From: Actinomycetales bacterium | GTDB lineage: Bacteria > Actinomycetota > Actinomycetes > Actinomycetales > Quadrisphaeraceae | Direction: 5' to 3' | NCBI GenBank assembly: GCA_022701985.1 | Contig: JAKONK010000053.1 | Span: 1,320 to 65,319, forward strand | DNA length: 64,000 bases | Shown: positions 11,889 to 62,161 of the stretch, piece by piece | Numbering within the stretch: position 1 is the first letter of the stretch | How the letters are laid out: each line of letters starts with the position of its first letter | Position numbers and translations under genes: made by a program | Notes under the pieces: generated by a model | What the model was told of the DNA's origin: nothing | Database searches by the model: none | What the model saw: the letters and a program-made list of their open reading frames with translations, nothing else

Positions 11889-11914
11889 TTCGGTCCTGAG
11901 GGGGTCGCGGATGG
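11889..11914 (-). promoter_or_regulatory. SigK-type promoter of sigK-rskA
   Basis: Minus strand CCATCC-GCGACCCCCTCAGGA-CCGAA (N15), 28 nt upstream of the start. Confidence 0.75.
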
Positions 11915-11981
11915 GAGCCGATCGGGTGGACCACGCTCGCGACCGTAACCGCTCGGTGCTGCTCGGCGCGCGCGATGGTGA

Positions 11982-14804
11982 TCAGCCCTTGCGCGCCGCC
12001 CCGGCGCTCTTGGCCGCGGGCTTCCTCGCCGCCGGCTTGCGCGCGGCGGGCTTCTTGGCGCCCTTGGTGGCCGGGCCCTTGGCGCGCTTCTCGGCGAGCA
12101 GCTCCGCCGCCCGCTCGATCGTCACGGACTCGACGGAGTCGGCGGTGCGCAGGGTCGCGTTCGTGGTGCCGTCGGTGACGTAGGGGCCGAAGCGCCCCTC
12201 CTTGACGACGACGGGCGCGCCGCTCGCGGGGTCGGTGCCCAGCTCCCGCAGGGGCGCCGCCGCCGCGCGACCGCCGCGGCCCCGCTTGGGCTCGGCGTAC
12301 AGGGCCAGGGCCGCCTCGAGGGTCACGTCGAAGAGCTGGTCCTCGCTGGTGAGCGACCGGGAGTCGGTGCCCTTCTTCAGGTAGGGCCCGTAGCGGCCGT
12401 TCTGGGCGGTGATCTCCTCACCGGTGGCGGGGTCGGTGCCCACCAGGCGCGGCAGCGACAGCAGGCGCAGCGCGTCGTCGAGGGTGACGGTCTGCAGCTG
12501 CATGCTCTTGAACAGCGACCCGGTGCGCGGCTTGGCGCTCTTGGGCGCGCCGTCCTCCAGCACCTCGGTGACGTACGGGCCGAAGCGCCCGGCCCGCACG
12601 ACGACGGTCCGCCCCGTGGCCGGGTCGGTGCCGAGCTCGCGGTCGCCGTCGCCGGCGGCCTCGAGCAGCTCGCGCGCCTTGGCGGGCGTGAGCTCGTCGG
12701 GGGCGAGGTCGTCGGGCACGGGCGCGCGCTGCGGGTCGGAGCCCTCCGGGGAGCCCTCCGCCGGGGGCAGCTCCAGGTAGGGCCCGTAGCGCCCGACGCG
12801 CAGCGTGATGCCCTCGCCGACGTCGAGGGAGTTGATGCCGCGCGCGTCGATGTCGCCGAGGTCGTCGACCAGGGGCTTCAGGCCCGTGCGCGCACCCGGT
12901 GCGGCCGGGCCCGAGCCGGTGCCCGCACCGCCGGAGGCGGCGGCACCGCCCTCGGCGCCGAAGTAGAACCGGCTCAGCCAGGCGCGGCGGTCCTCGGACC
13001 CGCCGGCGATCCTGTCGAGGTCGTCCTCCATCTCGGCGGTGAAGTCGTAGTCGACGAGGTGGTCGAAGTGGTCCTCGAGCAGCCTGATGACGGCGAACGC
13101 CAGCCAGCTGGGCACGAGGGCGCTGCCCCGGCGCCAGACGTACCCGCGGTCGGAGATCGTGGCGATGGTGGCGGCGTAGGTGGAGGGGCGGCCGATGCCG
13201 CGCTCCTCCAGCGCCTTCACCAGGCTCGCCTCGGTGTAGCGCGGCGGCGGGGAGGTCTCGTGGCCGTCCGCGGAGGCGTCGAGGACGTCGACGCGCTGGC
13301 CCTGGACGAGCTCGGGCAGGCGGCGCTCGGCGTCGCCGCCACCGGAGTGCCGCTCCTCGTCGCGGCCCTCCTCGTAGGCGGCGAGGAAGCCGCGGAAGGT
13401 GATGACGGTGCCCGAGGTCGACAGCTCGACCTCGCGGGCGCCGGCGGTCAGCGAGCCGGTGCCGGGAGCGAGGGCGACGTCGCCGGCGAGGCGGACCGTG
13501 GCGGTGGAGCCGCGGGCGTCGGCCATCTGGCTGGCGACGGTGCGCTGCCAGATCATCTCGTAGAGGCGGAACTCCTCGCCCCGCAGCTGGCCCGCGACCT
13601 GCGCCGGGGTGCGGAAGACGTCGCCGGAGGGGCGGATCGCCTCGTGGGCCTCCTGGGCGTTCTTGGCCTTGGAGGAGTAGGTGCGGGGCGCCGCCGGCAC
13701 GTACTCGGCGCCGTACAGCTCGGCGGCCTGGGAGCGCGCCGCGCTCACGGCCTGCTGCGACAGCGAGACCGAGTCGGTGCGCATGTAGGTGATCCAGCCG
13801 TTCTCGTACAACGACTGGGCGGTGCGCATCGTCTGCCGCGCGGACGAGCCGAGCTTGCGGCTGGCCTCCTGCTGCAGCGTGGAGGTGGTGAACGGCGCCG
13901 CGGGCTTGCGCGTGTAGGGCTTGGTCTCGAGCGAGCGGACCACGAGGGCGTCGGAGCCGGCGTCGCGCAGGGCGCCGGCGACGGCGGTGGCGGCGGTCTC
14001 GTCCAGGCGCACCAGGCCGGCGCCGAGGCCGGCGGCGCGCTCGGTGAGCTGGCCGCTGTCGGCGAAGTCGCGGCCGGTGGCCACGCGGGCGCCGTCGACG
14101 GCCACCAGCCGGGTGGTGAAGCGCTGGGACGCCCCGGCGCCGGCCGGGGAGGTGCCGGCCTGGACGTCCCAGTACGACGCCGAGCGGAAGGCCATGCGCT
14201 CGCGCTCGCGCTCGACCACCATCCGGGTGGCCACCGACTGCACGCGGCCGGCGGACAGGCCGGCGCGGACCTTGCGCCACAGCACCGGGGAGACCTCGTA
14301 GCCGTAGAGCCGGTCGAGGATGCGGCGGGTCTCCTGCGCGTCGACCATGTGCGCGTCGATGTCGCGGGTGGACTCCAGCGCCCGCTGGATGGCCTCGCGG
14401 GTGATCTCGTGGAAGACCATCCGCTTGACCGGGACCGTCGGCTGCAGCGTCTGCAGCAGGTGCCAGGCGATCGCCTCGCCCTCGCGGTCCTCGTCGGTGG
14501 CGAGGTAGAGCTCGTCGGCGTCCTTCAGGGCCCGCTTGAGCTCGGTGACCTTCTTCTTCTTGTCGGCGTCGACGACGTAGTACGGCTCGAAGCCGTTGTC
14601 GACGTCGACGGCGAACTTGCCGAAGGGGCCCTTCTTCATCTCCGCGGGCAGCTCCGAGGGCTGCGGCAGGTCGCGGATGTGGCCGACGCTGGCCTCGACC
14701 TCGTACCCGTCGCCCAGGTAGCTGGCGATGGTGCGCGCCTTGGCGGGCGACTCGACGATGACGAGCCGGCGCACGGGCGCTGCGGAGGTGGAGCTTCGGG
14801 CCAC
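11982..14804 (-). CDS. topA: DNA topoisomerase I
   Basis: IVESPAKA, ATDEDREGE, SAGRVQS, ITYMRTD; actinobacterial C-terminal repeats and Lys-rich tail. Confidence 0.98.
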   Translation of the reverse strand: MARSSTSAAPVRRLVIVESPAKARTIASYLGDGYEVEASVGHIRDLPQPSELPAEMKKGPFGKFAVDVDNGFEPYYVVDADKKKKVTELKRALKDADELYLATDEDREGEAIAWHLLQTLQPTVPVKRMVFHEITREAIQRALESTRDIDAHMVDAQETRRILDRLYGYEVSPVLWRKVRAGLSAGRVQSVATRMVVERERERMAFRSASYWDVQAGTSPAGAGASQRFTTRLVAVDGARVATGRDFADSGQLTERAAGLGAGLVRLDETAATAVAGALRDAGSDALVVRSLETKPYTRKPAAPFTTSTLQQEASRKLGSSARQTMRTAQSLYENGWITYMRTDSVSLSQQAVSAARSQAAELYGAEYVPAAPRTYSSKAKNAQEAHEAIRPSGDVFRTPAQVAGQLRGEEFRLYEMIWQRTVASQMADARGSTATVRLAGDVALAPGTGSLTAGAREVELSTSGTVITFRGFLAAYEEGRDEERHSGGGDAERRLPELVQGQRVDVLDASADGHETSPPPRYTEASLVKALEERGIGRPSTYAATIATISDRGYVWRRGSALVPSWLAFAVIRLLEDHFDHLVDYDFTAEMEDDLDRIAGGSEDRRAWLSRFYFGAEGGAAASGGAGTGSGPAAPGARTGLKPLVDDLGDIDARGINSLDVGEGITLRVGRYGPYLELPPAEGSPEGSDPQRAPVPDDLAPDELTPAKARELLEAAGDGDRELGTDPATGRTVVVRAGRFGPYVTEVLEDGAPKSAKPRTGSLFKSMQLQTVTLDDALRLLSLPRLVGTDPATGEEITAQNGRYGPYLKKGTDSRSLTSEDQLFDVTLEAALALYAEPKRGRGGRAAAAPLRELGTDPASGAPVVVKEGRFGPYVTDGTTNATLRTADSVESVTIERAAELLAEKRAKGPATKGAKKPAARKPAARKPAAKSAGAARKG

Positions 14805-14964
14805 GGACGGGCCTGCCTTCCGGGTGGGGACGGTCTGGGACGGGGTTCGGGACGAGCGCTCGGCGACGGCTGGCGGTGGTCTTCACGGCCGCTGCGCCAC
14901 GGCGAGTGTGCAGGACGCAGCGGTGGGGCGTGGGCCGGACGGGTCCGGCCGGGTCGCCCGGGCC

Positions 14965-15972
14965 TCAGCCGGAGCTGCGCCCCTCGGGGCCCGGCGGCCG
15001 CGCGGCGGGCGCCGCAGCGGGCTGCTCGCCGAGCACGGTACCCCCCGCCGGTCCGGCCGCTCCCCCGCCGCTCGGTCGGCGCGCCCCGACGACGGGTCCG
15101 GAGGACGCCGGAACCATCCGGTCGGCGGCCCGGTCGCCGGCCCGCTGGAGCAGGAGCAGCACCAGCAGCCCCGCGCACGCGGCCCCGCCGACGCCGAGGG
15201 CGCCGCCGACGCCCGCGACCAGCTGCCCCGCGCGGCCGGTCGGCTCGGGGGGCACGGCCACCCACACCGCCGCCAGCGCCGCCGCTCCGCCCGCCAGGCC
15301 GACCGCCGCCCCGACGACCAGGACGGTCCCCGCGGCCGCGCGGGCCGAGGAGCCCGCCCCGCCCGAGGCCCGGCCGCCGGCCAGGGGCGCGAGCAGGGCG
15401 CCCCAGGCCAGGACCACCAGCGCGGCGGCGACGACGTCGCTGGGCCGGTGCCACCCCGCGGCGAGGGTCCCGACGCCGATGACCGCCGTGTACGCGGCGC
15501 CGACCACGGCCACGAGCGGGCGCAGGCGCACCGGGGAGACGAGCAGCGCAGCGGCGGAGACCGCCGCCGCGAACGTGGTGTGCCCGGAGGGCAGGGAGTT
15601 GTCGAGGGCGTAGGTGACGTCGAGGTCGGGCCTGACGAGCAGCAGGCGCTTGACCACCTGGGTGGTCGCCAGCGCGCCCACCACCAGCGCCACGGCCGCC
15701 AGGGCGAGCCGGACCCGCCGCTGCACCAGCGCGGCCACCGCCACCGCCGCCAGCGCCGCGAGCACCGCGAGCGCCGAGACGCTGTCGAGCACGAGGTCGG
15801 CGCTGTCCTGCAGGCGCCACAGCCGGGCGCGGGCGCCGGACAGGGCGGCCTCGTCGACGGCCTGGCCGTGCGCGGTGGCGACGAAGACGCGGTGGAGCAC
15901 CACGACCCCGGCGGCGCAGGCCAGGGCGACGAGCACCCCGGCCACGAGGGGCGGGCGGGCACCGCGGGTCAC
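14965..15972 (-). CDS. PAP2-family membrane phosphatase
   Basis: KRLLLVRP, SLPSGHT and WHRPSDV motifs; GTG start overlaps the methyltransferase stop. Confidence 0.82.
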   Translation of the reverse strand: MTRGARPPLVAGVLVALACAAGVVVLHRVFVATAHGQAVDEAALSGARARLWRLQDSADLVLDSVSALAVLAALAAVAVAALVQRRVRLALAAVALVVGALATTQVVKRLLLVRPDLDVTYALDNSLPSGHTTFAAAVSAAALLVSPVRLRPLVAVVGAAYTAVIGVGTLAAGWHRPSDVVAAALVVLAWGALLAPLAGGRASGGAGSSARAAAGTVLVVGAAVGLAGGAAALAAVWVAVPPEPTGRAGQLVAGVGGALGVGGAACAGLLVLLLLQRAGDRAADRMVPASSGPVVGARRPSGGGAAGPAGGTVLGEQPAAAPAARPPGPEGRSSG

Positions 15973-17543
15973 GAGGGCCACTCCAGGAGGCCGTCCTCCA
16001 CCAGCCCGCGCACCTGCGGCAGCAGCTCGGCGCGCAGCTGCGCGGCGTCGACCTCCAGCAGCACGGCCAGCGCCCCCACCACCTGGCCGACCGCCAGCTC
16101 GCCGTCGCAGGCGCCGACCAGGCCGGCCAGGGCGGTCCCGACCGACGCCGTGCGCCCCAGCCCGCCGCCGGCCCGCAGCAGGACGGCGCGGGGTCCGCCC
16201 TCGCCGGGGCGGGCGTGGCGCTCCTCGGTGACGTCGTCGGCCACGCGCAGGCGCGCGGCGAGCAGGTCCTCGTCGCGCGCGGTGGCGAGGCGGTCCCGCG
16301 CCGCCAGGACGGCGGCGACGTGGCCGCCGAGCGGGCCGTCCAGGCGGCCGGTGACCTCCTCGACGCGGCGCCAGCGCGGTCGCGCAGGGGAGCCGGCCGC
16401 GCCGGCGGGCGGGGCGTGCAGGACGACGAAGCCCAGCCCCACCGCCTCGACGCCGCGGGCGGCGAAGTCGTCGAGCCACGCCTCCAGCAGGGCGTCGGCG
16501 ACCGGGCCGGGGCGCTGGCCGCCGTCGCGGATCCAGGTCTCGGCGTAGTCGGCCGGGTCCTGCACCTCGCGCTGCACCACCCAGCCGTCGAGGCCCGACT
16601 CCTCCAGCCATCCGGTGACCCGGTCGTGCCAGCCCTCGCCGGCGCGGTGCTCCCAGTTGCCGAGCAGCTGCGCGCTGCCGCCGGGCGCCAGCACGGCGCC
16701 GAGGCCGGTGACCAGGCGCCGCACCACCTCGTCGCCGACGAGGCCCCCGTCGCGGTACTCCCAGCCGGGCACCCCCGCGGCCCGGGGGGTCACCACGAAC
16801 GGCGGGTTGGAGACCACCTGGTCGTACCGCTCGCCGGCCACGGGCTCCAGCAGGCTCCCTCGGCGCAGGTCGAGCTCCACCCCGGCGAGCGCGGCGTTGA
16901 AGGCGGCGAAGTCCAGGCAGCGCTGGGAGGTGTCCGTGGCGGTGACCGAGCGGGCGTGGCGCGAGGCGTGCAGCGCCTGGACCCCGCTGCCCGTGCCGAT
17001 GTCCAGCACGCGGCCCACGGGCTCGCGCACCGCGAGGCGGGCCAGGGAGGCCGAGGCCCCGCCGATGCCGAGGACGTGCTCGACGGGCAGCGCCTCCCCG
17101 GTGACGGGCTCACCGAGGTCGGAGGCGACCCACCAGGTCACCTCGCCGCCGGTGCCGGTGGCGCTGCCCGCGGCGCTGTGGGGGCGCAGGTCGACGGCGG
17201 CGCGGACCTCGTCGTCGGGCGCGGCGCCCGCGGCGCGCACCAGGCCGGCGGCCTCCGCGCCCGCGGCACCCGCGGCCGGCAGCGCGCGGTCGAGGGCGGC
17301 GCGCGGCACCGGCCGGCCGAGGAGGAAGAGCCGGGTGAGCACGGCGGCGGGGTCGCCCGCGGCGGCGGGCGCCTCGGTCACCCGCAGCGCGGGCACCAGC
17401 GACTCCCGGCGCAGCGCGGCCTCGGCGACCGTGCCCAGCAGCTCCTCGACGCCGTCCACGGTCCACCCGGAGGCCTCGAGGTCGTCCCTCAGGGGTGCGA
17501 CGACGCCCCCCGGCAGCACGGGCGCGGGGGGCGTCGTCGTCAT
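15969..17543 (-). CDS. Class I SAM-dependent methyltransferase (HemK/MTS-like)
   Basis: LDIGTGSG and VSNPPF motifs; TACCGT 7 nt upstream of the ATG. Confidence 0.85.
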   Translation of the reverse strand: MTTTPPAPVLPGGVVAPLRDDLEASGWTVDGVEELLGTVAEAALRRESLVPALRVTEAPAAAGDPAAVLTRLFLLGRPVPRAALDRALPAAGAAGAEAAGLVRAAGAAPDDEVRAAVDLRPHSAAGSATGTGGEVTWWVASDLGEPVTGEALPVEHVLGIGGASASLARLAVREPVGRVLDIGTGSGVQALHASRHARSVTATDTSQRCLDFAAFNAALAGVELDLRRGSLLEPVAGERYDQVVSNPPFVVTPRAAGVPGWEYRDGGLVGDEVVRRLVTGLGAVLAPGGSAQLLGNWEHRAGEGWHDRVTGWLEESGLDGWVVQREVQDPADYAETWIRDGGQRPGPVADALLEAWLDDFAARGVEAVGLGFVVLHAPPAGAAGSPARPRWRRVEEVTGRLDGPLGGHVAAVLAARDRLATARDEDLLAARLRVADDVTEERHARPGEGGPRAVLLRAGGGLGRTASVGTALAGLVGACDGELAVGQVVGALAVLLEVDAAQLRAELLPQVRGLVEDGLLEWPS

Positions 17544-17558
17544 GGTGCCGACGGTACG

Positions 17559-20096
17559 TCAGCGGGTGGGGCGCTCCGCGGGCTCGCGCTCGGCCGACGC
17601 CTCGGTGGTCGGCTCGGTGGTCGGCTCGGTGGTCGGCTCGGTGGACGGCTCGGTGGACGCCCCGGTGGTCGGCTCGACGGCGTCGCCGTCGCCGTCGTCG
17701 TCCAGGTCGTCGTCGAGGTCGTCGTCCTCGTCCTCGTCGAGGGCGCTGGTGCGGCGGGCCGAGACGACCACCGCGATGACGATGACCAGCAGCGCCGCAC
17801 CGGCGATGCCCAGGCGCACCGGGGTGCTGGCGCCGTCGCCGATGGTGAGGGTCACGATCGCCGGGACCACGAGGATCGCCACCAGGTTCATCACCTTGAG
17901 CAGCGGGTTGATGGCCGGGCCGGCGGTGTCCTTGAACGGGTCGCCGACGGTGTCGCCGATGACCGTGGCGGCGTGGGCCTCCGAGCCCTTGCCGCCGTGG
18001 CTGCCGTCCTCGACCAGCTTCTTGGCGTTGTCCCACGCCCCGCCGGCGTTGGCCAGGAAGACCGCCATGAGGCAGCCGGTGCCGATGGCACCGGCGAGGA
18101 AGCCCACCAGGGCGGAGACGCCGAGGCCGAAGCCGACCACGACGGGCGCGAGGACCGCGAGCAGCCCGGGGGTGGCCAGCTCGCGCAGCGAGTCGCGGGT
18201 GCAGATGTCGACGACGCGGCCGTACTCCGGCTTCTCCGTGCCGTCCATGATCCCGGGCTTCTCGCGGAACTGGCGGCGCACCTCGAAGACGATGGCGCCG
18301 GCGGCGCGGGTGACCGCGTCGATGGCCAGGCCCGAGAACAGGAAGACCACCGCGGCGCCGACCAGCAGGCCCACCAGCACCGAGGGCACCGAGACCAGCC
18401 CGAGCGCCACCGCGACGTCGAGGTTGTTGCGGGAGGGGACCAGGCCCAGGGAGAGGATGTCGTAGTACGAGGGCTGGTTGGCCTGGGTCAGGGTGGTGGC
18501 GGCGTTGTTCAGCGCCGTCCCGAAGCTGTCGGCGAGGGAGCCGAACAGGGCCGTCGCGGCGAGCACCGCCGTCGCGATCGCGATGCCCTTGGTGATCGCC
18601 TTGGTGGTGTTGCCCACCGCGTCGAGGTCGGTGAGCGTGCGGGCGGCCTCCTCGTCGACGTCGCCGGACATCTCGGCGATGCCCTGGGCGTTGTCGCTGA
18701 CGGGGCCGAACGTGTCCATGGCCACGATGACGCCCACCGTGGTCAGCAGGCCGGTGCCGGCCAGCGCCACGAGGAACAGCGAGAGCGCGACGGCGCCGCC
18801 GGCCAGCAGGAAGCACAGCAGGACGGCGGTGCCGATGATCAGCGTGGTGTAGACGGCCGAGGTGAGGCCCAGCCCGATGCCCGAGAGCACCACGGTGGCC
18901 GGGCCGGTCAGCGACGTGCGCGCCACCGCCCGGGTCGGCTTCGACTCGGTGCCCGTGTAGTAGCCGGTGATCCACAGGATGACGACGGCCAGCAGGATCC
19001 CGACGATCACGGCGGCGGAGGCGAGGAAGCGGGGGTCGCCCGCGCTCTGCGCCGCGGCGAGGCCGGGGAGGTCGGCGAAGCTGGCGGGCAGGTAGAGGAA
19101 CGCCACGACCGTGCTGCCGACGGCGGAGACGACGGCCGAGATGTAGAAGCCGCGCTGGATGGCGGTCAGGCCGCTCTCGGTGCCGCGGGTGCGGGTGAGC
19201 AGGATGCCCAGGACCGCGGTGAGGGCACCGACGGCGGGCACGAGCAGCGGGAAGACCAGACCGGCGTCGCCGAAGGCGGCCCGGCCCAGGATCAGCGCGG
19301 CCACCAGGGTCACGGCGTACGACTCGAACAGGTCGGCGGCCATGCCGGCGCAGTCGCCGACGTTGTCACCGACGTTGTCGGCGATGGTGGCGGCGTTGCG
19401 CGGGTCGTCCTCGGGGATGCCCTGCTCGACCTTGCCGACGAGGTCGGCGCCGACGTCGGCGGCCTTGGTGAAGATGCCGCCGCCGACGCGCATGAACATC
19501 GCCACGAGCGCGGCCCCGAAGCCGAAGCCCTCCAGCATCGTGGGGGCGTCGGCCTTGAAGAGGAGCACCACCAGGGCGGAGCCGAGCAGGCCGAGACCGA
19601 CGGTGGCCATGCCGACGGTGCCGCCGGTGCGGATGGCGAGGCGGAAGCCCGCCGCGCGGCCCTCGGGGTCGCGCGAGGCCGCGGCCACGCGCACGTTGGC
19701 GCGCACCGCCAGGGACATGCCGAGGTAGCCCACCGCGGCGGAGAAGAGCGCTCCGACCAGGAACAGGACGGCGCGCCCGATGCGCACCTCCGCGTCGCCG
19801 GGCAGCAGGAAGAGCAGCGCCACGACCGGCAGGGCGAAGACCGCCAGCGTGCGGAACTGGCGCCGCAGGTAGGCGCTCGCGCCCTCCTGGACCGCCGAGG
19901 CGATCTCCTGCATGCGCTCGGTGCCGGTGCCGGCGGCGAGCACCTGGCGGCGGAAGACGAAGGCCGTCGCCAGCCCGAGGGCGGCGACCACCGCCACCCC
20001 GATGACGATCCACTGGTCACGACCGGTCACGGCCGTGCTGGCGGTGGTGGCGCTGCCGGCCGCAGCCAGCACGGTCCCGCTCGTCAGCCCGAGCAT
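17559..20096 (-). CDS. hppA: Membrane-bound ion-translocating pyrophosphatase (K+-independent type)
   Basis: DVGADLVGKVE, EDDPRN, DNVGDNVGD, GDTVGDPFKD; GNTTKA has the Lys of K+-independent enzymes. Confidence 0.96.
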   Translation of the reverse strand: MLGLTSGTVLAAAGSATTASTAVTGRDQWIVIGVAVVAALGLATAFVFRRQVLAAGTGTERMQEIASAVQEGASAYLRRQFRTLAVFALPVVALLFLLPGDAEVRIGRAVLFLVGALFSAAVGYLGMSLAVRANVRVAAASRDPEGRAAGFRLAIRTGGTVGMATVGLGLLGSALVVLLFKADAPTMLEGFGFGAALVAMFMRVGGGIFTKAADVGADLVGKVEQGIPEDDPRNAATIADNVGDNVGDCAGMAADLFESYAVTLVAALILGRAAFGDAGLVFPLLVPAVGALTAVLGILLTRTRGTESGLTAIQRGFYISAVVSAVGSTVVAFLYLPASFADLPGLAAAQSAGDPRFLASAAVIVGILLAVVILWITGYYTGTESKPTRAVARTSLTGPATVVLSGIGLGLTSAVYTTLIIGTAVLLCFLLAGGAVALSLFLVALAGTGLLTTVGVIVAMDTFGPVSDNAQGIAEMSGDVDEEAARTLTDLDAVGNTTKAITKGIAIATAVLAATALFGSLADSFGTALNNAATTLTQANQPSYYDILSLGLVPSRNNLDVAVALGLVSVPSVLVGLLVGAAVVFLFSGLAIDAVTRAAGAIVFEVRRQFREKPGIMDGTEKPEYGRVVDICTRDSLRELATPGLLAVLAPVVVGFGLGVSALVGFLAGAIGTGCLMAVFLANAGGAWDNAKKLVEDGSHGGKGSEAHAATVIGDTVGDPFKDTAGPAINPLLKVMNLVAILVVPAIVTLTIGDGASTPVRLGIAGAALLVIVIAVVVSARRTSALDEDEDDDLDDDLDDDGDGDAVEPTTGASTEPSTEPTTEPTTEPTTEASAEREPAERPTR
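17601..17676. repeat. 12-bp tandem repeat (CTCGGTGGTCGG, about 6 copies) encoding EPTT/EPST in the HppA tail
   Basis: Direct reading of the sequence. Confidence 0.85.
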
Positions 20097-20202
20097 CCGT
20101 CCTCCTCGACGAGGCTGGGGCGAGCCCCTCCTGGTGGCCTCGCGGCACCCGTCGGAGGGACAGAAGGTCGGCGTGAGACTACAAGGCGCTCCGCCGGGGG
20201 CG

Positions 20203-20643
20203 TCAGGACGCCGCGTCGGCGGGCAGGCCCCACGTCAGCCGGGTGGTGCCTCCCGGGCCACCGGGGCCCGCGGAGACGGAGACCTCGTCGGCGAGGCCCT
20301 CCATGAGCAGCATGGCGACCTCCTCGGACTCCACGCCGTCGTCACCGGCGCCGTCGACCACCTCGACGACGAGCACCCCCTCCGCCGCGGTCAGGACCAT
20401 CTGCACCAGCTCGGCGGTGCCCGCGGACTCGCTGCGCTGCACGGCGCGCCCGCAGGCCTCGCCCACGGCCAGGCGGACGCCCTCGACGTCGGTGGTGTCC
20501 AGGCCCGCCCGCCGCGACAGGGAGGTCGCCACGAGCCGCGCGGTGCGCACGTGCTCGGGCAGGGCCGTGAAGCGCAGCACGACCGGCCCCAGCGGCGCGG
20601 GGGCGCCGCCGGGGCCGGTCGGGTGCTGCAGAGGGGGAGCCAC
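20203..20643 (-). CDS. Anti-sigma factor / HATPase_c_2 protein (ApgA-like)
   Basis: PEHVRTARLVA and VRLAVGEAC; directly downstream of bldG. Confidence 0.8.
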   Translation of the reverse strand: MAPPLQHPTGPGGAPAPLGPVVLRFTALPEHVRTARLVATSLSRRAGLDTTDVEGVRLAVGEACGRAVQRSESAGTAELVQMVLTAAEGVLVVEVVDGAGDDGVESEEVAMLLMEGLADEVSVSAGPGGPGGTTRLTWGLPADAAS

Positions 20644-20645
20644 GG

Positions 20646-21002
20646 TCAGGAGGCGGACTCTCCGCTGGACGCGGCGACCGCGTCGTCGACGGTGCTGTGG
20701 ATCGGGAAGACCTTGGTCAGGCCGGTGATGCGGAAGACCTTGAGGATCTTCTCCTGGGTGCACACCAGGTGCAGCGAGCCGTCGTGGGAGCGCACGCGCT
20801 TGAGGCCGCCGACGAGGACGCCGAGGCCGGTCGAGTCGAGGAAGTCGACCTTCTCCATGTCGACGACCAGGTGGTGGCGGCCCTCGCCGACGAGGTCGTT
20901 CAGGCGCTCGCGCAGGACGGGGGCGGTGTAGACGTCGATCTCGCCGCCGACCTCGACGACGGTCCGGCCGCCCTGCTCGCGGCTGGTCACGGACAGGTCC
21001 AC
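20646..21002 (-). CDS. bldG: Anti-sigma-factor antagonist (STAS), BldG/RsbV-like
   Basis: [18 protein letters not shown] (phospho-Ser), FRITGL. Confidence 0.93.
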
Positions 21003-21183: not shown

Positions 21184-21216
21184 CCGCCCGCCCGGCGGGT
21201 GGGCGACCATGGGGGC

Positions 21217-50504: not shown

Positions 50505-51775
<1,271 letters not shown>

Positions 51776-53290: not shown

Positions 53291-54312
53291 GCCTCGGCCA
53301 GGGCCGGCGTCCACACCGCGGTGCGACCGCGTCCGGCGCGCTTGGCCGCGTAGAGGGCCTGGTCGGCGCGCGGGAGCGCGGTGTCGAGGTCGTCCCCGGC
53401 GGCGAGCCCCGTGACGCCGGCGGTGCAGCTGCGCCCGGTCGGGAGCGCCGACCGCAGGCGGTCGGTGAGGTCCGCGGCCCCGGCGGGGTCGAGGCGGACG
53501 ACGAGCACGAACTCGTCGCCGCCCCAGCGCCCGAGCACCGCTGACGGCGGCAGCAGCGCGCTCCACGCCGTCGCCGCGCGGCGCAGCAGCTCGTCACCGG
53601 CGGCGTGGCCGGTGGTGTCGTTCACCTGCTTGAAGTGGTCGAGGTCGAGGACCGCCAGCGACAGGGGCGCGTCCCCGCGGTGCGCTGCGAGGGAGGCGGC
53701 GAGGCGGTTCTCGGTGCCCCGCCGGTTGGGCAGCCCCGTGAGCACGTCGACCTCCGCGGCCGTCGTCGCCGTCGCGATGGACCGGGACAGCAGCCCGACG
53801 ACGACGCCCGTGGTCACCAGCTCGCCGATCAGCACGACGAGGTCCCCCGCCGAGACGCCCGGCACCGAGCTGAGCGCGACGGACGCGACCGCGGCGGTCA
53901 GCAGCGTCAGGGCCGCGGCGGTGGCCCAGGTGAAGAAGAAGAAGGCGACCACCACCATCACCGCGAACAGCCCGGCGTCGGTGGCGCTCGGCGTGCCGCC
54001 GCCGTCGAGGTGGACACCGGCGCCGATGGCGAGGGTGACCACCGGGTACACGGCCAGGTGGTGCGAGGCGCGCATGCGCCGGCGGAACGGCCAGACCACC
54101 AGTCCCCCCGCGACGGCCAGCAGGGCGACCGCGAGCGAGGGCCAGGAGTGCGGCCAGCCGGGCCGCAGGAGCGTGGCGAACGCCACGGTCCCACCGCACA
54201 GCACCATGACCAGCGACGTCGTCGTACCGATCGTGGTGCTGTGCACCGCCGGCTGGGTGCGGGCGGCGCCGGCCAGCGCCCGCAGGAGCTGGGGGAGGGC
54301 CCGGCGGGTCAT
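53176..54312 (-). CDS. Membrane diguanylate cyclase
   Basis: [20 protein letters not shown], intact [14 protein letters not shown]. Confidence 0.9.
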
Positions 54313-56126
54313 CGGAGGTCCCCTGCCGGGACCGCGGGGCGGGGCACCGGGACGCCCACCTCGCGCAGGAGCCGCTCGGTGAAGTCCGAGGCGGGGAGGG
54401 CCGGGGCCCACAACCAGCCCTGGGCCTCCTCGCAGCCGCGCTCGCGCAGCCAGGCGGCCTGGTGCTCGGTCTCGACGCCCTCGGCCACGACCGACATGTC
54501 CAGCGCCTGCGCCAGCGCGACCACGCCGGCGCACAGCGCCGCGTCGCTGCCGGGGGCGACGGTGGTGACGAAGCTCCGGTCGATCTTCAGCACGTCCAGC
54601 GGCAGGCGGCCCAGCCGGGCCAGGCTCGACCACCCGGTGCCGAAGTCGTCGACGGCGAGGCGCACCCCGGCGGCGCGCAGCGCGTGCAGGTTGTCGGCCA
54701 CCACCGGGGAGTCCTCGTCGAGCAGGCCCTCGACGACCTCCACCACGAGGCGGTGCCCGGGCAGGTCCGCGGCGTGGAGCGCGGAGACCACCCAGGCGGC
54801 GTAGTCGGGGCTCGCCAGCTCGGTGCCCGAGGCGTTGACGGCCACCGTCAGCGGTTCCGGGCCGGCGGGGCACGGCCAGGAGGCGGCGTCGGCGCAGGCC
54901 CGCCGGAGCACGAAGCGGCCCAGGTCGACGACGGCACCGCTGGTCTCGGCGTGCGGCAGGAAGTCCGACGGGGGCACGAAGCCGCCGCTGGCGCGCCGCC
55001 ACCTCACGAGGGCCTCGGCCCCGGTGGTGCGGCCCGTGGCCAGGGAGACGACGGGCTGGTAGTGCACCTCGACCTCACCGGCCTCCAGGGCCGCGAGGAA
55101 GCCCCGCCCGGTGGGGGTGCCGGGCGCCCACAGGTGGGTGGAGCCCCGCTGGGCGCGCTTGGCGGCGGCCAGGGAGCCGTCGGCGTGGTCGACCACGTCC
55201 TCGAGCTCGTCGTCCATCTCGGCGGCGACGACCCCGGCGCTGAAGGTCAGGTCCTCGGGGCAGCGGGCCCGCAGCCCCTGCACCAGGTCCCAGGCGGCGT
55301 CCAGGTCGCCCCGGACCACGAGGGCGAACTGGTCACCGCTCCAGCGGCCGAGGACGGCCCCGCGCGGCAGCACCCCCGACCAGTCCAGGGCGAGCCGCTG
55401 CAGGACGGCGTCGCCGGCGGCGTGCCCGCGGGTGTCGTTGACGGCGGTGAACCTGTCCAGGCCCAGCACCGCGAAGACGACCGGATCGCCACCGCGGACG
55501 GCCTGGTCCAGGCTCCGCGACAGCTTGGCGGTGGTGCTGGTGCGGTCGGGCAGGCGGGTCAGCGGGTCGCGCCCCGCGCCCTCCGAGGCGCGGGCCAGCA
55601 GGCGCACGAGCACCGCCACGACGACCACGACGACCCCGCCGGCGAGGACGTCGTCCACCGAGGAGCCGGTGCTCGCCAGGGCGGCGACCAGCACCGCGGC
55701 GGCGACGGCGGCGTGGGCGGCGTGGGCGCGGCCGCTGAAGTAGAAGGCGCTGCTGACGACGGGGAGCACCATCAGCCAGGAGTCAGCCGCCGCGTGGGTC
55801 CCGGGGCCGTAGAGGTGCAGGCCCGCGCCGATGGCCAGCAGGGCGACCAGCTGGGTGACGTGGAAGTGCCACACCGCCGTCATCCGGTGGCGCAGGGCGT
55901 GGATCGCTCCCGCGGCGGCCGCTGCACCGACGGCGAAGCCCCACACGGCACCGGGGCGGGGCAGGTCGCCGCGCAGCAGCAGGCCGGCGCCGGTGACGGC
56001 GGCCCCGACGAGGTACAGCGCGACCGAGGCCCGGCGCATGACCTCGACCGAGGCGCCCTCCCGGGGCGTCACGGCCTCGTGGCGCACCGCGCGGGCGAGG
56101 CGGCCCAGGGCGGCGGGGAGGCTCAC
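54309..56126 (-). CDS. Membrane GGDEF(degenerate)-EAL phosphodiesterase
   Basis: SGDQF in place of GGDEF; EAL, DDFGTG, KIDRSF and EGVE intact. Confidence 0.9.
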   Translation of the reverse strand: MSLPAALGRLARAVRHEAVTPREGASVEVMRRASVALYLVGAAVTGAGLLLRGDLPRPGAVWGFAVGAAAAAGAIHALRHRMTAVWHFHVTQLVALLAIGAGLHLYGPGTHAAADSWLMVLPVVSSAFYFSGRAHAAHAAVAAAVLVAALASTGSSVDDVLAGGVVVVVVAVLVRLLARASEGAGRDPLTRLPDRTSTTAKLSRSLDQAVRGGDPVVFAVLGLDRFTAVNDTRGHAAGDAVLQRLALDWSGVLPRGAVLGRWSGDQFALVVRGDLDAAWDLVQGLRARCPEDLTFSAGVVAAEMDDELEDVVDHADGSLAAAKRAQRGSTHLWAPGTPTGRGFLAALEAGEVEVHYQPVVSLATGRTTGAEALVRWRRASGGFVPPSDFLPHAETSGAVVDLGRFVLRRACADAASWPCPAGPEPLTVAVNASGTELASPDYAAWVVSALHAADLPGHRLVVEVVEGLLDEDSPVVADNLHALRAAGVRLAVDDFGTGWSSLARLGRLPLDVLKIDRSFVTTVAPGSDAALCAGVVALAQALDMSVVAEGVETEHQAAWLRERGCEEAQGWLWAPALPASDFTERLLREVGVPVPRPAVPAGDLR

Positions 56127-56200
56127 GTCCCCCTCATCGGACCGCCGGCGCGCCCGCTTGAGGCGGACGGCCGGCGGACCGCCGACCGGCTCCCACCCGG

Positions 56201-56236
56201 AGGCGGTCAGAGGCGGTCAGAGGCGGTCAGAGGCGG
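56201..56236. repeat. 10-bp tandem repeat (AGGCGGTCAG x3.6) at the rlmB 3' end
   Basis: Direct reading; the last full copy contains the rlmB stop. Confidence 0.85.
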
Positions 56237-57276
56237 GCGCGGGCCCCCGCCGCCGTGCGGGCGCGCGCCACCTCGTACAGCGCGATGCTGCAGGCGACGC
56301 CGGCGTTGAGCGACTCCACGGCACCGGCCATGGGGATCGAGGCGACCAGGTCGCAGCCCTCCCGCACCAGGCGCGACAGCCCCCGGCCCTCGGAGCCGAT
56401 GACGATGGCCACCGGGCCCTCGGCGATGCGCGCGACCTCGGCGGAGCCCACGGGGGCGTCGGCGTCGGCGTCCAGTCCGATGACGAAGCAGCCGGCGTCC
56501 TTCGCGACCTTCAGCGCACGGGTCAGGTTGGTCTCCCGGGCGACCGGCAGACGGGCCGCGGCACCGGCGGAGGTCTTCCAGGCGCTGGCGGTCATGCCCG
56601 CCGAGCGGCGCTCGGGCAGCAGCACGCACGAGGCGCCGAAGGCGGCGGCCGAGCGGACGACGGCCCCCAGGTTGCGCGGGTCGGTCACCCCGTCGAGGGC
56701 CACGACCAGCGGTGCGCGGCCCGCGGCGGCGTCGTCGTCGAGGACGTCGGCCAGGGTGGTGTACGAGTACGGCGGCACGGTGAGCACCAGGCCCTGGTGC
56801 ACCGCCCCGTCGGTCATGCGGTCGAGGTCGGTGCGGGTCGTCTCCAGCACCGGCAGGCCGCGGTCGGCGGCCGCGCGGAGCACCTCGCGCACGCGGTCGT
56901 CGGTCTCGATGCGGGTCGCGACGTGCAGCGCGGTCGCCGGGACGCCGGTGCGCAGCGCCTCGACCACGGAGTTGCGGCCCGCCACCGCCTCGTTGCCGGA
57001 GCGGCTGGTGGTGGTGCGGCCCGCGCGGGGAGAGCCGACCGGGGGCCGCCCTCCCGAGCGCGCCGGGGCGGAGGCCGCCGCGGGCGGGCCCTGCTCGGCG
57101 CGGCGCGCGGCTGCTGCGGCGCGCTTGGCGGCGGGGTGCTTGGTGCGCTCCTCGGCGGGGGGCGTGGGGCCGCGGCCCTCGAGGGCCCGGCGGCCCTTGC
57201 CCCCGGTGCCGGTGGTGGCGCCCTTCTTGCTGCCGGCGTTGCGCACGGCGCCGCGGCGGGTCGAGTTGCCGGCCAT
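56227..57276 (-). CDS. rlmB: 23S rRNA Gm2251 methyltransferase
   Basis: [25 protein letters not shown] (SPOUT); next to cysS. Confidence 0.94.
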
Positions 57277-57312
57277 GGGTGGGTCTCCTGTCGAGGGGGT
57301 GGGTGGGCGGCG

Positions 57313-58764
57313 TCAGCCGCCGAGCGACCAGCGGGCGCCGTCGGACGAGTCCTGGACGCGCACGCCGGCGGCGGCGAGGGTGTCGCGCACGGCGTCGGCC
57401 GCGGCGAAGTCCCTGCGGGCCCTGGCCTGCGCGCGGGCGTCGAGCTGTGCCTGCACCAGGGCGGCGAGGGCCTTCTCCTGGGCGGCCTGCGCCGACGACG
57501 CGGCGCCGGTGCCGCCGCTCCAGTGCGGGTCGAGCGGGTCGATGCCGAGCGCCCGCACGATGGCGGTCACGTCGTTGGCGGCGGCGACGGCGAACTGCTC
57601 GCGGTCGTTGTCGAGCGCGACGTTCCCGGCGCGCACCGTGTCGTGGAGCACCGCGAGCGCGCCGGGGACGTTGAGGTCGTCGTCCATGGCGGCGCGGAAG
57701 GCGGGCGGGAGGCGCAGCGCCGGGGCTCCGGAGCCGGCGGGGCGGGAGGCGTAGGCGTCGACGACCGGCTGCACCCGGCGCAGGAAGGTCTCCACGCGCC
57801 CGACGGCGCTCTCCGCCTCGGTGAGCGACGTGGCCGAGTGCTCCAGGTTGGACCGGTAGTGCGCCGAGCCGAGGTAGTAGCGCAGCGCCAGCGGGGTCGT
57901 GCTCCTCAGCACCTCGGTGACCAGCAGGGAGTTGCCGAGCGACTTGCTCATCTTCTCCCCGCCCTGCGTGACCCAGCCGTTGTGCAGCCAGTAGGAGGCG
58001 AACCCGAGGCCGGCGGCGCGGCTCTGCGCCTGCTCGTTCTCGTGGTGGGGGAAGCGCAGGTCGAGGCCGCCGCCGTGGACGTCGAAGGCGTCGCCGAGGT
58101 AGCGGCGGGCCATCGCGGAGCACTCCAGGTGCCAGCCCGGTCGGCCGCGGCCGAACGGCGTGGGCCACGAGGCCGTGGCGGGCTCGCCGGGCTTGGAGCC
58201 CTTCCAGAGGGCGAAGTCGCGGGGGTCGCGCTTGCCGCGGGGGTCGGCGTCCTCGGCGGGGGCGACGTCGTCGATCCTGACGTGCGTCAGCGCGCCGTAC
58301 TCGGCGAAGGAGCGGACGTCGAAGTAGACGTCGCCCGAGCCGTCGGCGGCGGCGTACGCGTGACCGCGCTCGACCAGGAGCTCCACGAGCTCGACCATCT
58401 CCGGCACGTGGCCGGTGGCGCGCGGCTCGTAGGTGGGGCGGCGCACGCCCACGGCGTCGTAGGCGGCCGTGAAGGCCTGCTCGTGGGTGTACGCCCACGC
58501 CCACCAGGGGCGGCCGGCGTCGGCGGCCTTCGTGAGGATCTTGTCGTCGATGTCGGTGACGTTGCGCACGAACGTCACCTCGAGGCCGTGGCCGACCTCG
58601 AGCCAGCGGGCCAGCACGTCGAAGGCGACGCCGGAGCGCAGGTGCCCGATGTGCGGCGGCGCCTGCACGGTGGCGCCGCAGAGGTAGATGGAGGCCGCTC
58701 CGGGGCGCAGGGGCTCGAAGTCGCGCACGGCGGCGGCCTCGGTGTCGTACAGGCGGAGGGGCAC
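57313..58764 (-). CDS. cysS: Cysteinyl-tRNA synthetase
   Basis: CGATV, HIGH, GWHLECS, KMSKS. Confidence 0.98.
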
Positions 58765-58898
58765 CCCCCCAGGTTATCGGCGCTGGCGGGCCGCCCGGTC
58801 CAGCGCCGCGGACCCCGGTCGCCCCGCCGGTGCACCAGCGGCCGCCGGTGCGCCGGTCCGTGGGTGACGACGGGCGAGCGGCTCGCTAGCGTCGCCCC

Positions 58899-59984
58899 AT
58901 GCCTCACACCGTCAAGGGCGTCGTCGCCCTCAGCAAGGGAGCTCCCGTCGAGCTCGTCGACGTCGTGGTCCCCGACCCGGGCCCCTTCGAGGCCGTGGTC
59001 GACGTCCAGGCCTGCGGCGTCTGCCACACCGACCTGCACTACCGCGAGGGCGGCATCTCCGACGACTACCCCTTCCTGCTGGGCCACGAGGCCGCGGGCG
59101 TGGTCTCCGCGGTCGGCGAGGCGGTGACCGACGTCGCCGTGGGCGACTACGTCGTCCTCAACTGGCGCGCGGTCTGCGGCAGCTGCCGCGCCTGCCGCCG
59201 CGGCCGCCCCTGGTACTGCTTCGCCACGCACAACGCCGAGCAGAAGATGACCCTGGCCGACGGGACGCCCCTGTCCCCCGCCCTCGGCATCGGCGCCTTC
59301 GCCGAGAAGACCCTCGTGCACGCCGGGCAGTGCACCAAGGTCGACCCGGCCCTCCCCGCCGCCGCCGCGGGCCTCCTGGGCTGCGGGATCATGGCGGGCT
59401 TCGGCGCGGCCGTGAACACCGGCGCGGTGACCCGCGGTGACTCCGTGGCCGTCATCGGGTGCGGCGGCGTCGGCGACGCCGCCATCGCCGGCGCGAAGCT
59501 CGCCGGGGCGACCACCGTCATCGCGGTGGACGTCGACGACCGCAAGCTCGAGGTCGCGAGGCGCTTCGGGGCCACCCACACCGTGAACAGCCGCTCCTCC
59601 GACGCCGTGGAGAGCATCCGCGCACTGACCGGCGGCAACGGTGCCGACGTCGTCGTGGAGGCCGTGGGTCGCCCGGAGACGTACGAGCAGGCGTTCTACG
59701 CCCGCGACCTCGCCGGCACCGTGGTGCTCGTGGGCGTCCCGACCCCGCAGATGAGGATCGAGCTGCCCCTGCTCGACGTCTTCGGCCGGGGAGGCGCGCT
59801 GAAGTCGAGCTGGTACGGCGACTGCCTGCCCGAGCGCGACTTCCCGATGCTCGCCGCCCTGGCGCTGCAGGGCAGGTTCCCCCTGCAGGACTTCGTCACC
59901 GAGACGGTGGGCCTGGGCGACGTCGAGGCCGCGTTCGCCGCCATGGGCCGCGGCGACGTGCTGCGCTCGGTGGTGGTCCTGTGA
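58899..59984 (+). CDS. mscR: S-(hydroxymethyl)mycothiol dehydrogenase
   Basis: CHTD, GHE, structural Zn Cys cluster, [14 protein letters not shown]. Confidence 0.92.
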
Positions 59985-60625
59985 CCGCCGCGACGGGGAC
60001 CTTCCGCCTCGACCGGGGCACCGCCGAGGGCACCTTCAGCCTCGACGGGCAGACCTTCGACGTCGAGAACAACGTCCTGGTGCTCGGGGACGACGCCGAG
60101 TGCCTCGTCGTCGACGCGCCGCACGACCTCGAGGCCATCGCCGCGCTGGTGGGCGGCCGGCGCGTCGTCGCCGTCGTGTGCACCCACGCCCACGACGACC
60201 ACGTGCGCCGCGCCCCCGCGGCCGGGGAGCGCTTCGCGGCGCCGGTGATGCTGCACCGCGACGACCTCGGCCTGTGGACGCTGACCCACCCGACGTCGGC
60301 GCCGAGCGAGCTCCTCGAGGACGGCCAGGTCCTCGTCGTGGCCGGCCACGAGGTGCACGTGCTGCACACCCCGGGGCACTCCCCCGGCTCGGTGTGCCTC
60401 TACGTGCCCTCGCTGGAGACCGTGCTCACCGGTGACACGCTCTTCGCCGGGGGGCCCGGGGCCACCGGCCGCTCCTTCAGCGACTTCCCGACGATCATCA
60501 CCTCCATCCGGGAGCGCCTGCTCGCGCTGCCCCCGGGCACCGCAGTGGTGCCGGGTCACGGCGGCTCGACCACGGTCGGCGACGAGTCGCCGCACCTGCA
60601 GGAGTGGGTCGACAGGGGCCACTGA
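59981..60625 (+). CDS. MBL-fold metallo-hydrolase (Rv2260-like)
   Basis: [20 protein letters not shown]; GTGA overlap with mscR. Confidence 0.9.
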
Positions 60626-60626
60626 G

Positions 60627-61031
60627 GTGGCTCCCGACCGGGCGGCCGGACCGGGGCTGCGCGTCGACCTCGACCGCGGCCCCGGCGCCGCCGCGCCCTG
60701 GCAGCAGGTGCACGACCAGGTCGTCGCCGCCGTCGACGACGGCGTCCTGACCCCCGGCGACCGCCTGCCCACGGTCCGGGGGCTCGCCGAGCAGCTGGGG
60801 GTCTCCGCCGGGACGGTGGCGCGCGCCTACCGCGCGCTGGAGGCGTCCGACGTGGTGGCGACCGCCAGCCGCGCCGGCACCGTGGTGCGCGACCGCGCAG
60901 CACCCCGCGGTGACGCGGCGGCCCGCAGCGCCGCAGCGGCGCTCGCGCGGGAGGCGGTGGCCGCGGGGCTGGACGACGAGGCGGCCCTGTCGCTGCTGCG
61001 CGGCGCGCTGGCGGTGGCGCGGGGCCGCTGA
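60627..61031 (+). CDS. GntR-family regulator (YtrA-like)
   Basis: PGDRLPTVRGLA..TVARAYRAL; short C-terminus. Confidence 0.85.
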   Translation: MAPDRAAGPGLRVDLDRGPGAAAPWQQVHDQVVAAVDDGVLTPGDRLPTVRGLAEQLGVSAGTVARAYRALEASDVVATASRAGTVVRDRAAPRGDAAARSAAAALAREAVAAGLDDEAALSLLRGALAVARGR

Positions 61032-61128
61032 CCCGGCGTGGGCCCGGTCCCGCGCCGACGAGCCCCGGCAGGTCGCCCCGCCGGGCCCCGGGAGCTGGTG
61101 AGCGGCCCCCGGAGCCCGGCGCCGGCCG

Positions 61129-62079
61129 TCAGGTCGTGGTGAGGCGCGCGTCCTGGTTGTTGGTGCCGGCGGGGAAGAACCCGCCGGAGCGCACGCCCTG
61201 CGCGGGGTTCAGGTAGGCGATGTTGTGCACCTGCTGGGGGGTGCGGCTGAAGGCGATCGCGTTGGCGTCGACCGGCGTCACGTTGATCCGGCCCTTCGCC
61301 TGCGAGACGCCCTGGTCGAGGTCGGTCTTCCCGTCGAGGGAGTCGCGCGCGTCGGAGATCTTGTTGGCGGCGTCGGCCAGGCCCTCGGTGTAGATGACGG
61401 TCCGCACGGCACCCGCGTGGTACGCCTCGACGGCCAGGATGCCGGCAGCGGCGTCCAGGTACGTCTTGCTGCTGATCAGGGGCGCTCCGCCCTTGTAGGC
61501 CGTGACGCCGACGTCCTCGAAGAGGTAGGCGCCGAGCAGGAAGCTCGTGTCGTCGGCGAACGCGTCGAACGACTGCCCGTCCTTGATGAGCCCGGCGGCC
61601 CTGGCGGCGGCGTTGAAGGCTCCGGTGAAGTCGATGGCCGGCCGCGCGACGGCGGCACCGCCGAGCGCACCGCGCAGGAACTTCACGTGGGCGATCTCGT
61701 CGTTGGCGATCTCCTCGGCGATCCCGCGGACGAGCTTGCTCTTGAACTCCACCTTGCGGCCGCCGTTGACGTCGCCGCGGGTGCAGGCGCCGGTGGTGAG
61801 GCCGTCGTCCAGGCCCCTGCCGTAGAAGGCGCGCGAGTAGAACTCGGCCTCCAGGTACTCCAGGTTCAGGGCGAAGTTCAGGATCGCGCCGTCGCTGATG
61901 GCGCCTCCGCCCCCGCCCCCGCCGTCCTTCGTGCCGGTCGCCGCCGCCGGGGAGGCGAGCGCCGTGGCGCCGACGACCCCGAGACCCGCGACACCGGCGG
62001 TGCGCAGGAACGCCCGCCGGTCGGCGCCGTTCTCGGCGCTGCGGCTGATCATGTCCGTGACGAGCTTGTTCCCGAACAC
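61129..62079 (-). CDS. Tat-exported ferritin-like protein (PCC13-62 desiccation-related family)
   Basis: Tat signal RRAFL..PAAA; [32 protein letters not shown]. Confidence 0.85.
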
Positions 62080-62135
62080 GTGCTCTCCCTCATCGAGGCC
62101 CGGGGGTCGACGTCGGCCCCTGCTGGCGCCACCCG

Positions 62136-62161
62136 TTCGGCGCAGCCGCGGCGCCGGATGG
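62136..62161 (-). promoter_or_regulatory. SigK-type promoter of the ferritin-like gene
   Basis: Minus strand CCATCC-GGCGCCGCGGCTGCG-CCGAA (N15), 56 nt upstream of the start. Confidence 0.72.

Follow-up and report, generated by a model that had tools for sequence, protein, structure and literature searches.

The stretch of DNA considered here, a 64-kb sequence from a Quadrisphaera-related actinobacterium (hereafter the window, which is also the part of the genome covered by the analysis), carries two copies of one bipartite promoter element, the first upstream of a sigma factor gene and its anti-sigma factor gene, sigK-rskA, and the second upstream of a gene for a predicted exported Ferritin_2 protein. 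With a probability of roughly 0.75, these are two promoters of the class read by SigK, an ECF19-type extracytoplasmic function (ECF) sigma factor, and they drive sigK-rskA and the Ferritin_2 gene, respectively. This reading is carried by the identity, rarity and conservation of the element, by its co-variation and linkage with sigK in other genomes, by the family assignments of the encoded proteins and by transcription in situ. The pairing of a SigK promoter with a Ferritin_2 gene recurs over many actinobacterial orders, and comparison of these sequences suggests that the Ferritin_2 protein probably belongs to the actinobacterial SigK stress regulon, as a widespread member not reported before, besides the fasciclin (MPT83-type) lipoprotein. 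An earlier note on this DNA had taken the shared promoter as a regulatory link between sigK and the ferritin-like gene, and this proposed link is now strongly backed by comparative genomics, through a footprint among orthologues, enrichment over 80 species and co-variation of promoter variants. The sequencing runs that contain the source DNA are chiefly those from the phyllosphere and from plant-associated samples, and the source bacterium is a leaf-surface actinobacterium (Quadrisphaera).

The element at sigK, PsigK, occupies positions 11889-11914 on the minus strand (CCATCCGCGACCCCCTCAGGACCGAA) and the element at the Ferritin_2 gene, Pfer, occupies positions 62136-62161 on the same strand (CCATCCGGCGCCGCGGCTGCGCCGAA). 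Each is an exact match to a -35 block, CCATCC, and a -10 block, CCGAA, separated by a 15-nt spacer. A scan of the window bore out the claim of the earlier note that these two minus-strand sites are its only exact copies of CCATCC-N15-CCGAA, and it revealed that their identity extends beyond the motif as first described, to CCCATCCG-N14-CCGAAC in both. Such a coincidence is rare: 0.02 exact matches are expected per window by chance, compared with the ~0.03 estimated earlier at ~77% GC (the measured GC content is 75-79%), and none of 100 dinucleotide-preserving shuffles gave two or more. Relaxing the spacer to 13-18 nt added no site within the window (0.06 expected). The sole extra site in the window, a one-mismatch match at 4665-4690, was dismissed, as it is at chance level (0.83 expected) and lies within a stretch of long open reading frames (ORFs). 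Both copies are of the type CC(A/C/G)(A/T)CC-N15/16-CCGAA(C/T) and are correctly oriented before their genes. The -10 block of PsigK ends 28 nt upstream of the GTG start codon of the sigma factor gene (11860), that of Pfer ends 56 nt upstream of the GTG of the ferritin-like gene (62079), and a Shine-Dalgarno-like sequence, GAGGTGG or GGGAGAG, lies 3-6 nt before each of the two start codons.

Footprinting of Pfer drew on five intergenic regions between the ferritin-like gene and its divergent neighbour sodA, namely those of the window, Quadrisphaera sp. INWT6, Q. setariae, Quadrisphaera sp. KR29 and one metagenome-assembled genome (MAG), across which identity of the ferritin-like protein is 74-100%, with the MAG at 74%. 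The blocks CCCATCC and CCGAACGGGTG are invariant in all five regions, whereas each region has its own 15-nt spacer sequence and conservation is poor over most of the flanks. Among the Quadrisphaera regions, the conserved block continues beyond the -10 block (CCGAACGGGTGGCG). Loss of the motif upstream of orthologues had been named beforehand as an outcome that would refute the proposed link; the motif instead held in 5/5 regions and was enriched over 80 species.

This enrichment was observed in a Ferritin_2 profile scan, using one genome per species, which yielded 80 loci, each from a different actinobacterial species. The exact motif was present on the correct strand within 400 nt upstream at eight of the 80 loci, compared with ~0.04 expected from a Markov simulation (~3.4 matches per 2.4 Mb); these eight belong to Quadrisphaera, Kineococcus, Friedmanniella, Nocardioides, Promicromonospora and uncultured lineages represented by MAGs. 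When up to one mismatch was allowed, the number rose to 22/80, where the control rate, at 0.010 for each region, predicts 0.8. A two-block position weight matrix (PWM), applied without iteration at a threshold set at ~1% per region, identified sites at 35/80 loci on the forward strand, at 3/80 on the reverse strand and at 0/80 inside coding sequence. An iterated PWM gave 39/80, a count that was set aside for possible drift in favor of the non-iterated count with its strand and coding sequence controls. A frequent -35 variant in this collection is CCAATCC (Nocardioides, Amycolatopsis). The bias extends to bases that the search pattern left free, as a C precedes CCATCC in 14 of 16 sites and G-C-(T/G) precedes CCGAA, and such conservation speaks against chance matches.

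Linkage and co-variation with sigK in other genomes connect the element to this particular family of sigma factors. At six of the 80 loci, the ferritin gene has a SigK-like sigma gene no more than ~3 kb away, and four of these six also contain an rskA gene. SigK is the top NCBIfam model for all five complete ferritin-linked sigma genes, with those of Actinoplanes (L010) and Promicromonospora (L042) exceeding the model cutoff. The Promicromonospora locus has back-to-back motifs, one directed toward sigK and one toward the ferritin gene. In Actinoplanes, one motif precedes sigK and another follows rskA, ahead of a gene for a fasciclin-domain lipoprotein, and the Amycolatopsis locus (L038) joins a fasciclin gene, sigK-rskA and the ferritin gene in one unbroken row, with motifs ahead of these genes. 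The fasciclin-sigK-rskA arrangement has been described as the "minimal cassette mpt83-sigK-rskA" (PMC7509140). Furthermore, the -35 variant co-varies within loci, being CCAATCC at sigK and its neighbors in L060 and L038, and CCCATCC in the window, L010 and L042. As a side observation, the sigK frame of the Amycolatopsis locus (L038:6599-6970, Amycolatopsis sp. NPDC101161) is apparently truncated to 112 aa, of which region 4 alone aligns, and it may represent a pseudogene or an assembly error.

The sigma factor gene of the window, sigK (11252-11860, minus strand), encodes a 202-aa protein of the SigK (ECF19-like) family. ECF18 and ECF19 are groups of the ECF sigma factor classification. Sigma70_r2 (2.5e-16) and Sigma70_r4_2 (3.3e-13) are its only Pfam domains, which is the ECF architecture. 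Its top NCBIfam model is SigK (NF007228), at 222.2 bits with a cutoff of 226 and with the runner-up family at 110.7, and its best sequence match in the PDB is M. tuberculosis SigK (4NQW; E 1.7e-36). Immediately downstream, rskA (10371-11255, minus strand) encodes a 294-aa membrane anti-sigma-K factor, in which an N-terminal zf-HC2 domain bearing H-x3-C-x2-C (Pfam 1.1e-5) is followed by a C-terminal RskA_C domain (1.6e-19). This protein scores 159 bits with the NCBIfam anti-sigma model NF052375 (cutoff 100). The TGA of sigK and the ATG of rskA overlap as ATGA. The NCBIfam and 4NQW matches and the RskA_C domain support what the earlier note had read from the sequence, a SigK-like sigma gene with an RskA-type anti-sigma gene.

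The pair is flanked by topA (11982-14804) and by an ORF in which a major facilitator superfamily (MFS) protein and a thymidylate kinase are fused. The latter (8100-10331, minus strand) encodes 743 aa, with the MFS transporter at residues 38-457 and the thymidylate kinase at residues 500-684. The order topA-sigK recurs in a metagenome locus (L083) whose SigK is 72% identical. A metagenome scan for SigK returned ~15 close relatives, the remainder being distant ECF sigma factors lacking the motif, and it lends support of a qualitative kind to autoregulation: the PsigK motif is also present in near-identical copies of the locus (L081, L082), and variants of the form CAATCC...[ACT]CGAA precede the sigK homologues of L083-L090 and L095.

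The earlier note had called the element the M. tuberculosis SigK consensus. Its assignment to the mycobacterial SigK type stands, because similar sites head the row of genes from an amine oxidase gene to sigK-rskA at both reference loci, CCGTCC-N15-CCGAATAC in the M. tuberculosis complex and CCAACC-N15-CCGAATAC in M. marinum, but its letters differ from those of the M. tuberculosis complex operon site, CCGTCC-N15-CCGAAT. At these two loci (L164:1815 and L165:1821, respectively), the lone SigK-type site precedes the amine oxidase gene, ~4 kb upstream of sigK, and no site within one mismatch was found directly before sigK at either locus.

The target gene at Pfer (61129-62079, minus strand) encodes a 316-aa Ferritin_2 protein of the PCC13-62/DRB0118/FeMP family (PF13668; Pfam E 2.7e-46), which matches over residues 62-230 with a score of 157.6 bits (gathering threshold 24.7). 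The nearest named relatives are from Quadrisphaera, with 96% identity to the protein of strain INWT6. The gene is divergent from a gene for an Fe/Mn superoxide dismutase, sodA (62422-63036, plus strand), and convergent with a GntR-family gene past its 3' end. The predicted leader of its mRNA lies within 62080-62135 (minus strand) and would be ~48 nt long if transcription starts 6-8 nt past CCGAA; it includes the ribosome binding site GGGAGAG (62083-62089, minus strand), as read from the sequence. Scans of 60900-62500 for sigma-70 promoters and terminators found nothing, including in the ferritin intergenic region. Past the stop codon of the ferritin-like gene, positions 61080-61123 (minus strand) contain a GC-rich hairpin whose stem measures ~15 bp, near the point at which metatranscriptome coverage ends (61133). 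This hairpin is followed by no U-tract and folds no better than shuffled sequences (z -0.71); it may act as the sort of factor-independent terminator typical of actinobacteria. Quadrisphaera genomes also carry a second Ferritin_2 paralogue (P0019, P0027; 64-66% identity), and at the L008 paralogue an exact CCATCC-N15-CCGAA lies 147 nt upstream, so both Quadrisphaera paralogues may be SigK targets.

The Ferritin_2 protein is predicted to be exported through the twin-arginine translocation (Tat) pathway. Its first ~46 residues (nt 61942-62079) form a predicted signal with the sequence DRRAFLR and a hydrophobic stretch, followed by a Gly-rich linker; an Ala-rich cleavage region comes after the hydrophobic stretch, and D20, R21, R22 and F24 of the Tat motif (D-R-R-x-F) are invariant in an alignment of 17 homologues, one of which (P0105) carries the NCBI name Tat signal sequence protein. 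The Pfam match and this alignment uphold the assignment of the protein to the Ferritin_2/PCC13-62 family and its twin-arginine signal, both proposed in the earlier note, and show this signal to be conserved. The n-region of the signal, ~20 residues (MFGKxxVxDMIxRSAENxxDRR), is, for a signal peptide, unusually conserved across orders (alignment A1, columns 14-45). A chaperone or a metal-insertion factor may dock there, and in Quadrisphaera 7-9 consecutive glycines come next. In the mature part, E74, E128xxH131, E188 and E218xxH221 are invariant in the 17 homologues, giving the E/ExxH/E/ExxH pattern of a dimetal-carboxylate protein. An AlphaFold2 (AF2) model predicts a four-helix bundle (residues 63-86, 115-142, 177-201 and 205-231; pLDDT >90), with residues 1-58 disordered (pLDDT <50). 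PDB sequence searches with a ferritin profile gave no meaningful match, and only the fold search reached a relative, the tardigrade protein RvY_06210 (RvFeMP-1; 8w9k and 8kce), which provided the best matches (E ~2e-3, ~19% identity, TM 0.35-0.40).

Repeated links exist between proteins of the PF13668 family and the ability of plants, tardigrades and Deinococcus to tolerate desiccation and radiation. The family includes the desiccation-related protein PCC13-62, and its only biochemically characterized members, RvFeMP-1 and Deinococcus DRB0118, are Zn/Mg dinuclear metabolite phosphatases (PMC11616004). Because the characterized members are Zn/Mg phosphatases, and RvFeMP-1 is also the best fold match of the window protein, the description of the latter as "di-iron" in the earlier note is an unproven assumption. 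The "oxidative/desiccation response" proposed along with it was, and is, reached by inference.

Transcription of the ferritin-like gene in situ was observed in phyllosphere metatranscriptomes, as runs X25, X27, X29 and X31 contain contigs of its coding sequence (61133-61977). A contig of the probable RNA run X26 extends farther, to 62104, leaving 32 nt to the -10 block of Pfer. No metatranscriptome contig covers 62105-62319, and sodA RNA contigs begin at 62320-62349. This coverage is compatible with transcription starting shortly past 62136, without mapping the start. Runs X3 and X8 behave like DNA, and an 18-nt piece in X28 (62137-62154) was disregarded, as it is part of an unrelated 2.5-kb contig. 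The intergenic region contains a second conserved block, CCCTCCGAGCATTCCGCC (62293-62310, minus strand; alignment A2, columns ~214-232), which is common to the four Quadrisphaera regions and is not found in that of the MAG. It stands just upstream of the sodA RNA contig starts and may be a promoter or operator of sodA.

In the mechanism that we infer from these observations, an envelope or redox signal would act on membrane-bound RskA, whereupon SigK would be released or activated for RNA polymerase, and the resulting holoenzyme would initiate at CCCATCCG-N14-CCGAAC. Initiation at 11889-11914 would provide positive autoregulation of the translationally coupled sigK-rskA genes, and initiation at 62136-62161 would give a probably monocistronic ferritin mRNA with the ~48-nt leader. 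The Ferritin_2 dimetal-carboxylate protein would be folded and presumably metallated in the cytoplasm before Tat export to the cell envelope. Use of the Tat pathway is consistent with cofactor loading before export, in keeping with general Tat biology.

Several points weigh against two SigK promoters in the window or against parts of this mechanism. The RNA data consist of assembled contigs, lacking read-start pile-ups, and bound the 5' end without mapping the start site; X26, moreover, is RNA by guess. One metatranscriptome contig (11043-12193) crosses PsigK, which implies either read-through from topA into sigK or DNA carry-over in the library. About half of the Ferritin_2 loci have no detectable motif, including that of L010, which lies beside sigK. 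No fasciclin gene was found in the window by tblastn with the L010 fasciclin protein (best E 2.0). The window sigma factor falls 4 bits under the curated SigK cutoff, and it contains zero cysteines, with Ala and Val aligned to Cys133 and Cys183 of M. tuberculosis SigK. This cysteine pair is frequent but not universal, being kept in 56-94% of ECF18/19 members, and cysteine-less SigK tends to accompany a truncated or abnormal RskA (23% vs 2%) (PMC7509140). The window pair combines a cysteine-less SigK with a full-length RskA bearing H-x3-C-x2-C; if the system is redox-sensitive, the sensor would more likely be on the anti-sigma factor than on the sigma factor.

A further point of this kind concerns which sigma factor reads Pfer. 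It could be a genuine ECF promoter recognized not by the product of 11252-11860 but by a SigK-like paralogue encoded outside the window, as 64 kb of the genome were examined and an ECF paralogue of the same specificity could lie elsewhere. The ferritin-adjacent sigma genes of L049, L060 and L065 are more divergent (140-218 bits, with the cutoff at 226), and 4157 SigK-like sequences spread over several ECF groups are found in representative genomes (PMC7509140), both of which leave room for such a paralogue. It is nevertheless an unlikely explanation, given that the two window sites share the extended core CCCATCCG...CCGAAC, that the -35 variant co-varies between the sigK promoter and its neighbors within loci, and that the ferritin-adjacent sigma factors of L010 and L042 are above the SigK cutoff.

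That the bipartite element is an operator rather than a promoter is very improbable. Candidate DNA-binding regulators would be the product of the convergent GntR-family gene past the 3' end of the ferritin gene, or a redox- or metal-responsive regulator that also acts on sodA, and the extension of the Quadrisphaera conserved block past the -10 block (CCGAACGGGTGGCG) could be seen as part of an operator. However, the half-sites are non-palindromic, the gap of 15-16 nt is fixed and the spacer sequence is free to vary, which together are the signature of a sigma factor -35/-10 pair, and the element is also seen ahead of sigK and of fasciclin genes in unrelated genomes without a GntR or sodA neighbor. 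A functionless chance match at the second site, conceivable in that short motifs recur in DNA of 76% GC and Markov simulations gave 0-8 exact matches per 2.4 Mb, is effectively refuted by enrichment and footprint, given 0.02 matches expected per window, an element invariant in five orthologous regions with variable spacers, and the exact motif at 8/80 independent species loci with ~0.04 expected.

Recognition of both window sites by SigK would place the Ferritin_2 gene in a regulatory system that has been studied for about twenty years for its control of the major antigens MPT70 and MPT83, and whose regulon function is still obscure. The SigK-RskA regulon of M. tuberculosis reportedly consists of mpt70, mpt83, dipZ and the Rv0449c-Rv0444c operon. 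One account gives eleven SigK-controlled genes in this species, naming only mpt70 and mpt83 along with an influence on katG, and reports that the signal inducing the system has yet to be found (PMC7509140). M. smegmatis lacks sigK-rskA, and a heterologous assay of SigK in this host has been described (PMC7509140). The window resembles the M. tuberculosis system in having an ECF sigma factor that best matches M. tuberculosis SigK, with an adjacent RskA_C anti-sigma factor, and in its promoter type. Autoregulation is implied, and related actinobacteria have fasciclin (MPT83-like) genes behind the same motif. In contrast to the mycobacterial regulon, the target in the window is a Ferritin_2 protein with predicted Tat export, which the eleven reported M. 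tuberculosis targets do not include (PMC7509140), and the window is without a fasciclin gene. In addition, the RskA-mediated activation of M. tuberculosis SigK needs Cys133 and Cys183, unlike the cysteine-less SigK of the window, and the sigK-rskA genes of the window lie between topA and the thymidylate kinase (tmk) fusion gene, not behind amine oxidase and cyclopropane synthase genes.

The Ferritin_2 protein likewise shows both similarities to and differences from its known relatives. It belongs to PF13668, as do PCC13-62 of Craterostigma plantagineum, DRB0118 of Deinococcus radiodurans and the tardigrade proteins RvFeMP-1 and RvFeMP-2, and its modeled four-helix bundle has 8w9k/8kce as the best fold match; like PCC13-62, it is predicted to be secreted. 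Unlike RvFeMP-1, which has Asp ligands at the second site, it has the full E/ExxH/E/ExxH ligand set, and it differs further in having a bacterial Tat signal and no IgG-like domain, at ~19% identity. The gene is expressed by a leaf-surface bacterium, and leaf surfaces are prone to desiccation and UV.

In the searchable literature, which leaves the ECF19 context tables outside the search, no paper linking SigK, RskA or ECF19 to ferritin-like or PF13668 proteins was found, nor was a regulator found to be assigned to bacterial PF13668 members. The word "ferritin" is absent from the SigK study cited above (PMC7509140), and a ferritin-like neighbor is absent from the main text of the ECF classification, whose supplementary group descriptions may list a Ferritin_2 context (PMC7826278). 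The ferritin link is thus a well-supported in silico extension of the known SigK regulon that was not found described. It joins two questions, the signal of SigK and the regulation of PF13668 proteins, by placing a SigK-type promoter before exported PF13668 genes, and it suggests drying, UV, peroxide and metal or phosphate limitation as candidate inducers of SigK. For non-pathogenic Actinobacteria, leaf-surface Quadrisphaera among them, it also singles out an enzyme of the envelope through which ECF19 activity could be read out. A more tentative and rather doubtful extension is that production of the exported Ferritin_2 protein has been a core function of SigK-RskA since its ancestral state, as old as mpt83-sigK-rskA, and that the system at its root senses extracytoplasmic desiccation, UV or oxidative damage. 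On this reading, the exported dimetal enzyme would rid the cell envelope of peroxides or of metabolites that have been damaged, bacterial "desiccation-related" PF13668 proteins would gain their first regulator, and the SigK regulon would gain its first enzymatically tractable effector.

SigK-type motifs were also noted ahead of genes of other kinds. These encode a DUF4383 membrane protein in Streptomyces cyaneofuscatus (L045:11199, minus strand), a 233-aa lipoprotein without a Pfam match in Arthrobacter (L020:9804, plus strand) and, as judged by eye, a sortase-like protein in Microlunatus speluncae (L060:2229, plus strand). A weaker match, to the PWM only (score 15.4), lies ahead of a gene for a 262-aa secreted protein in Actinoplanes (L010:12412, minus strand). 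All four genes may belong to a broader SigK regulon that is directed at the envelope.

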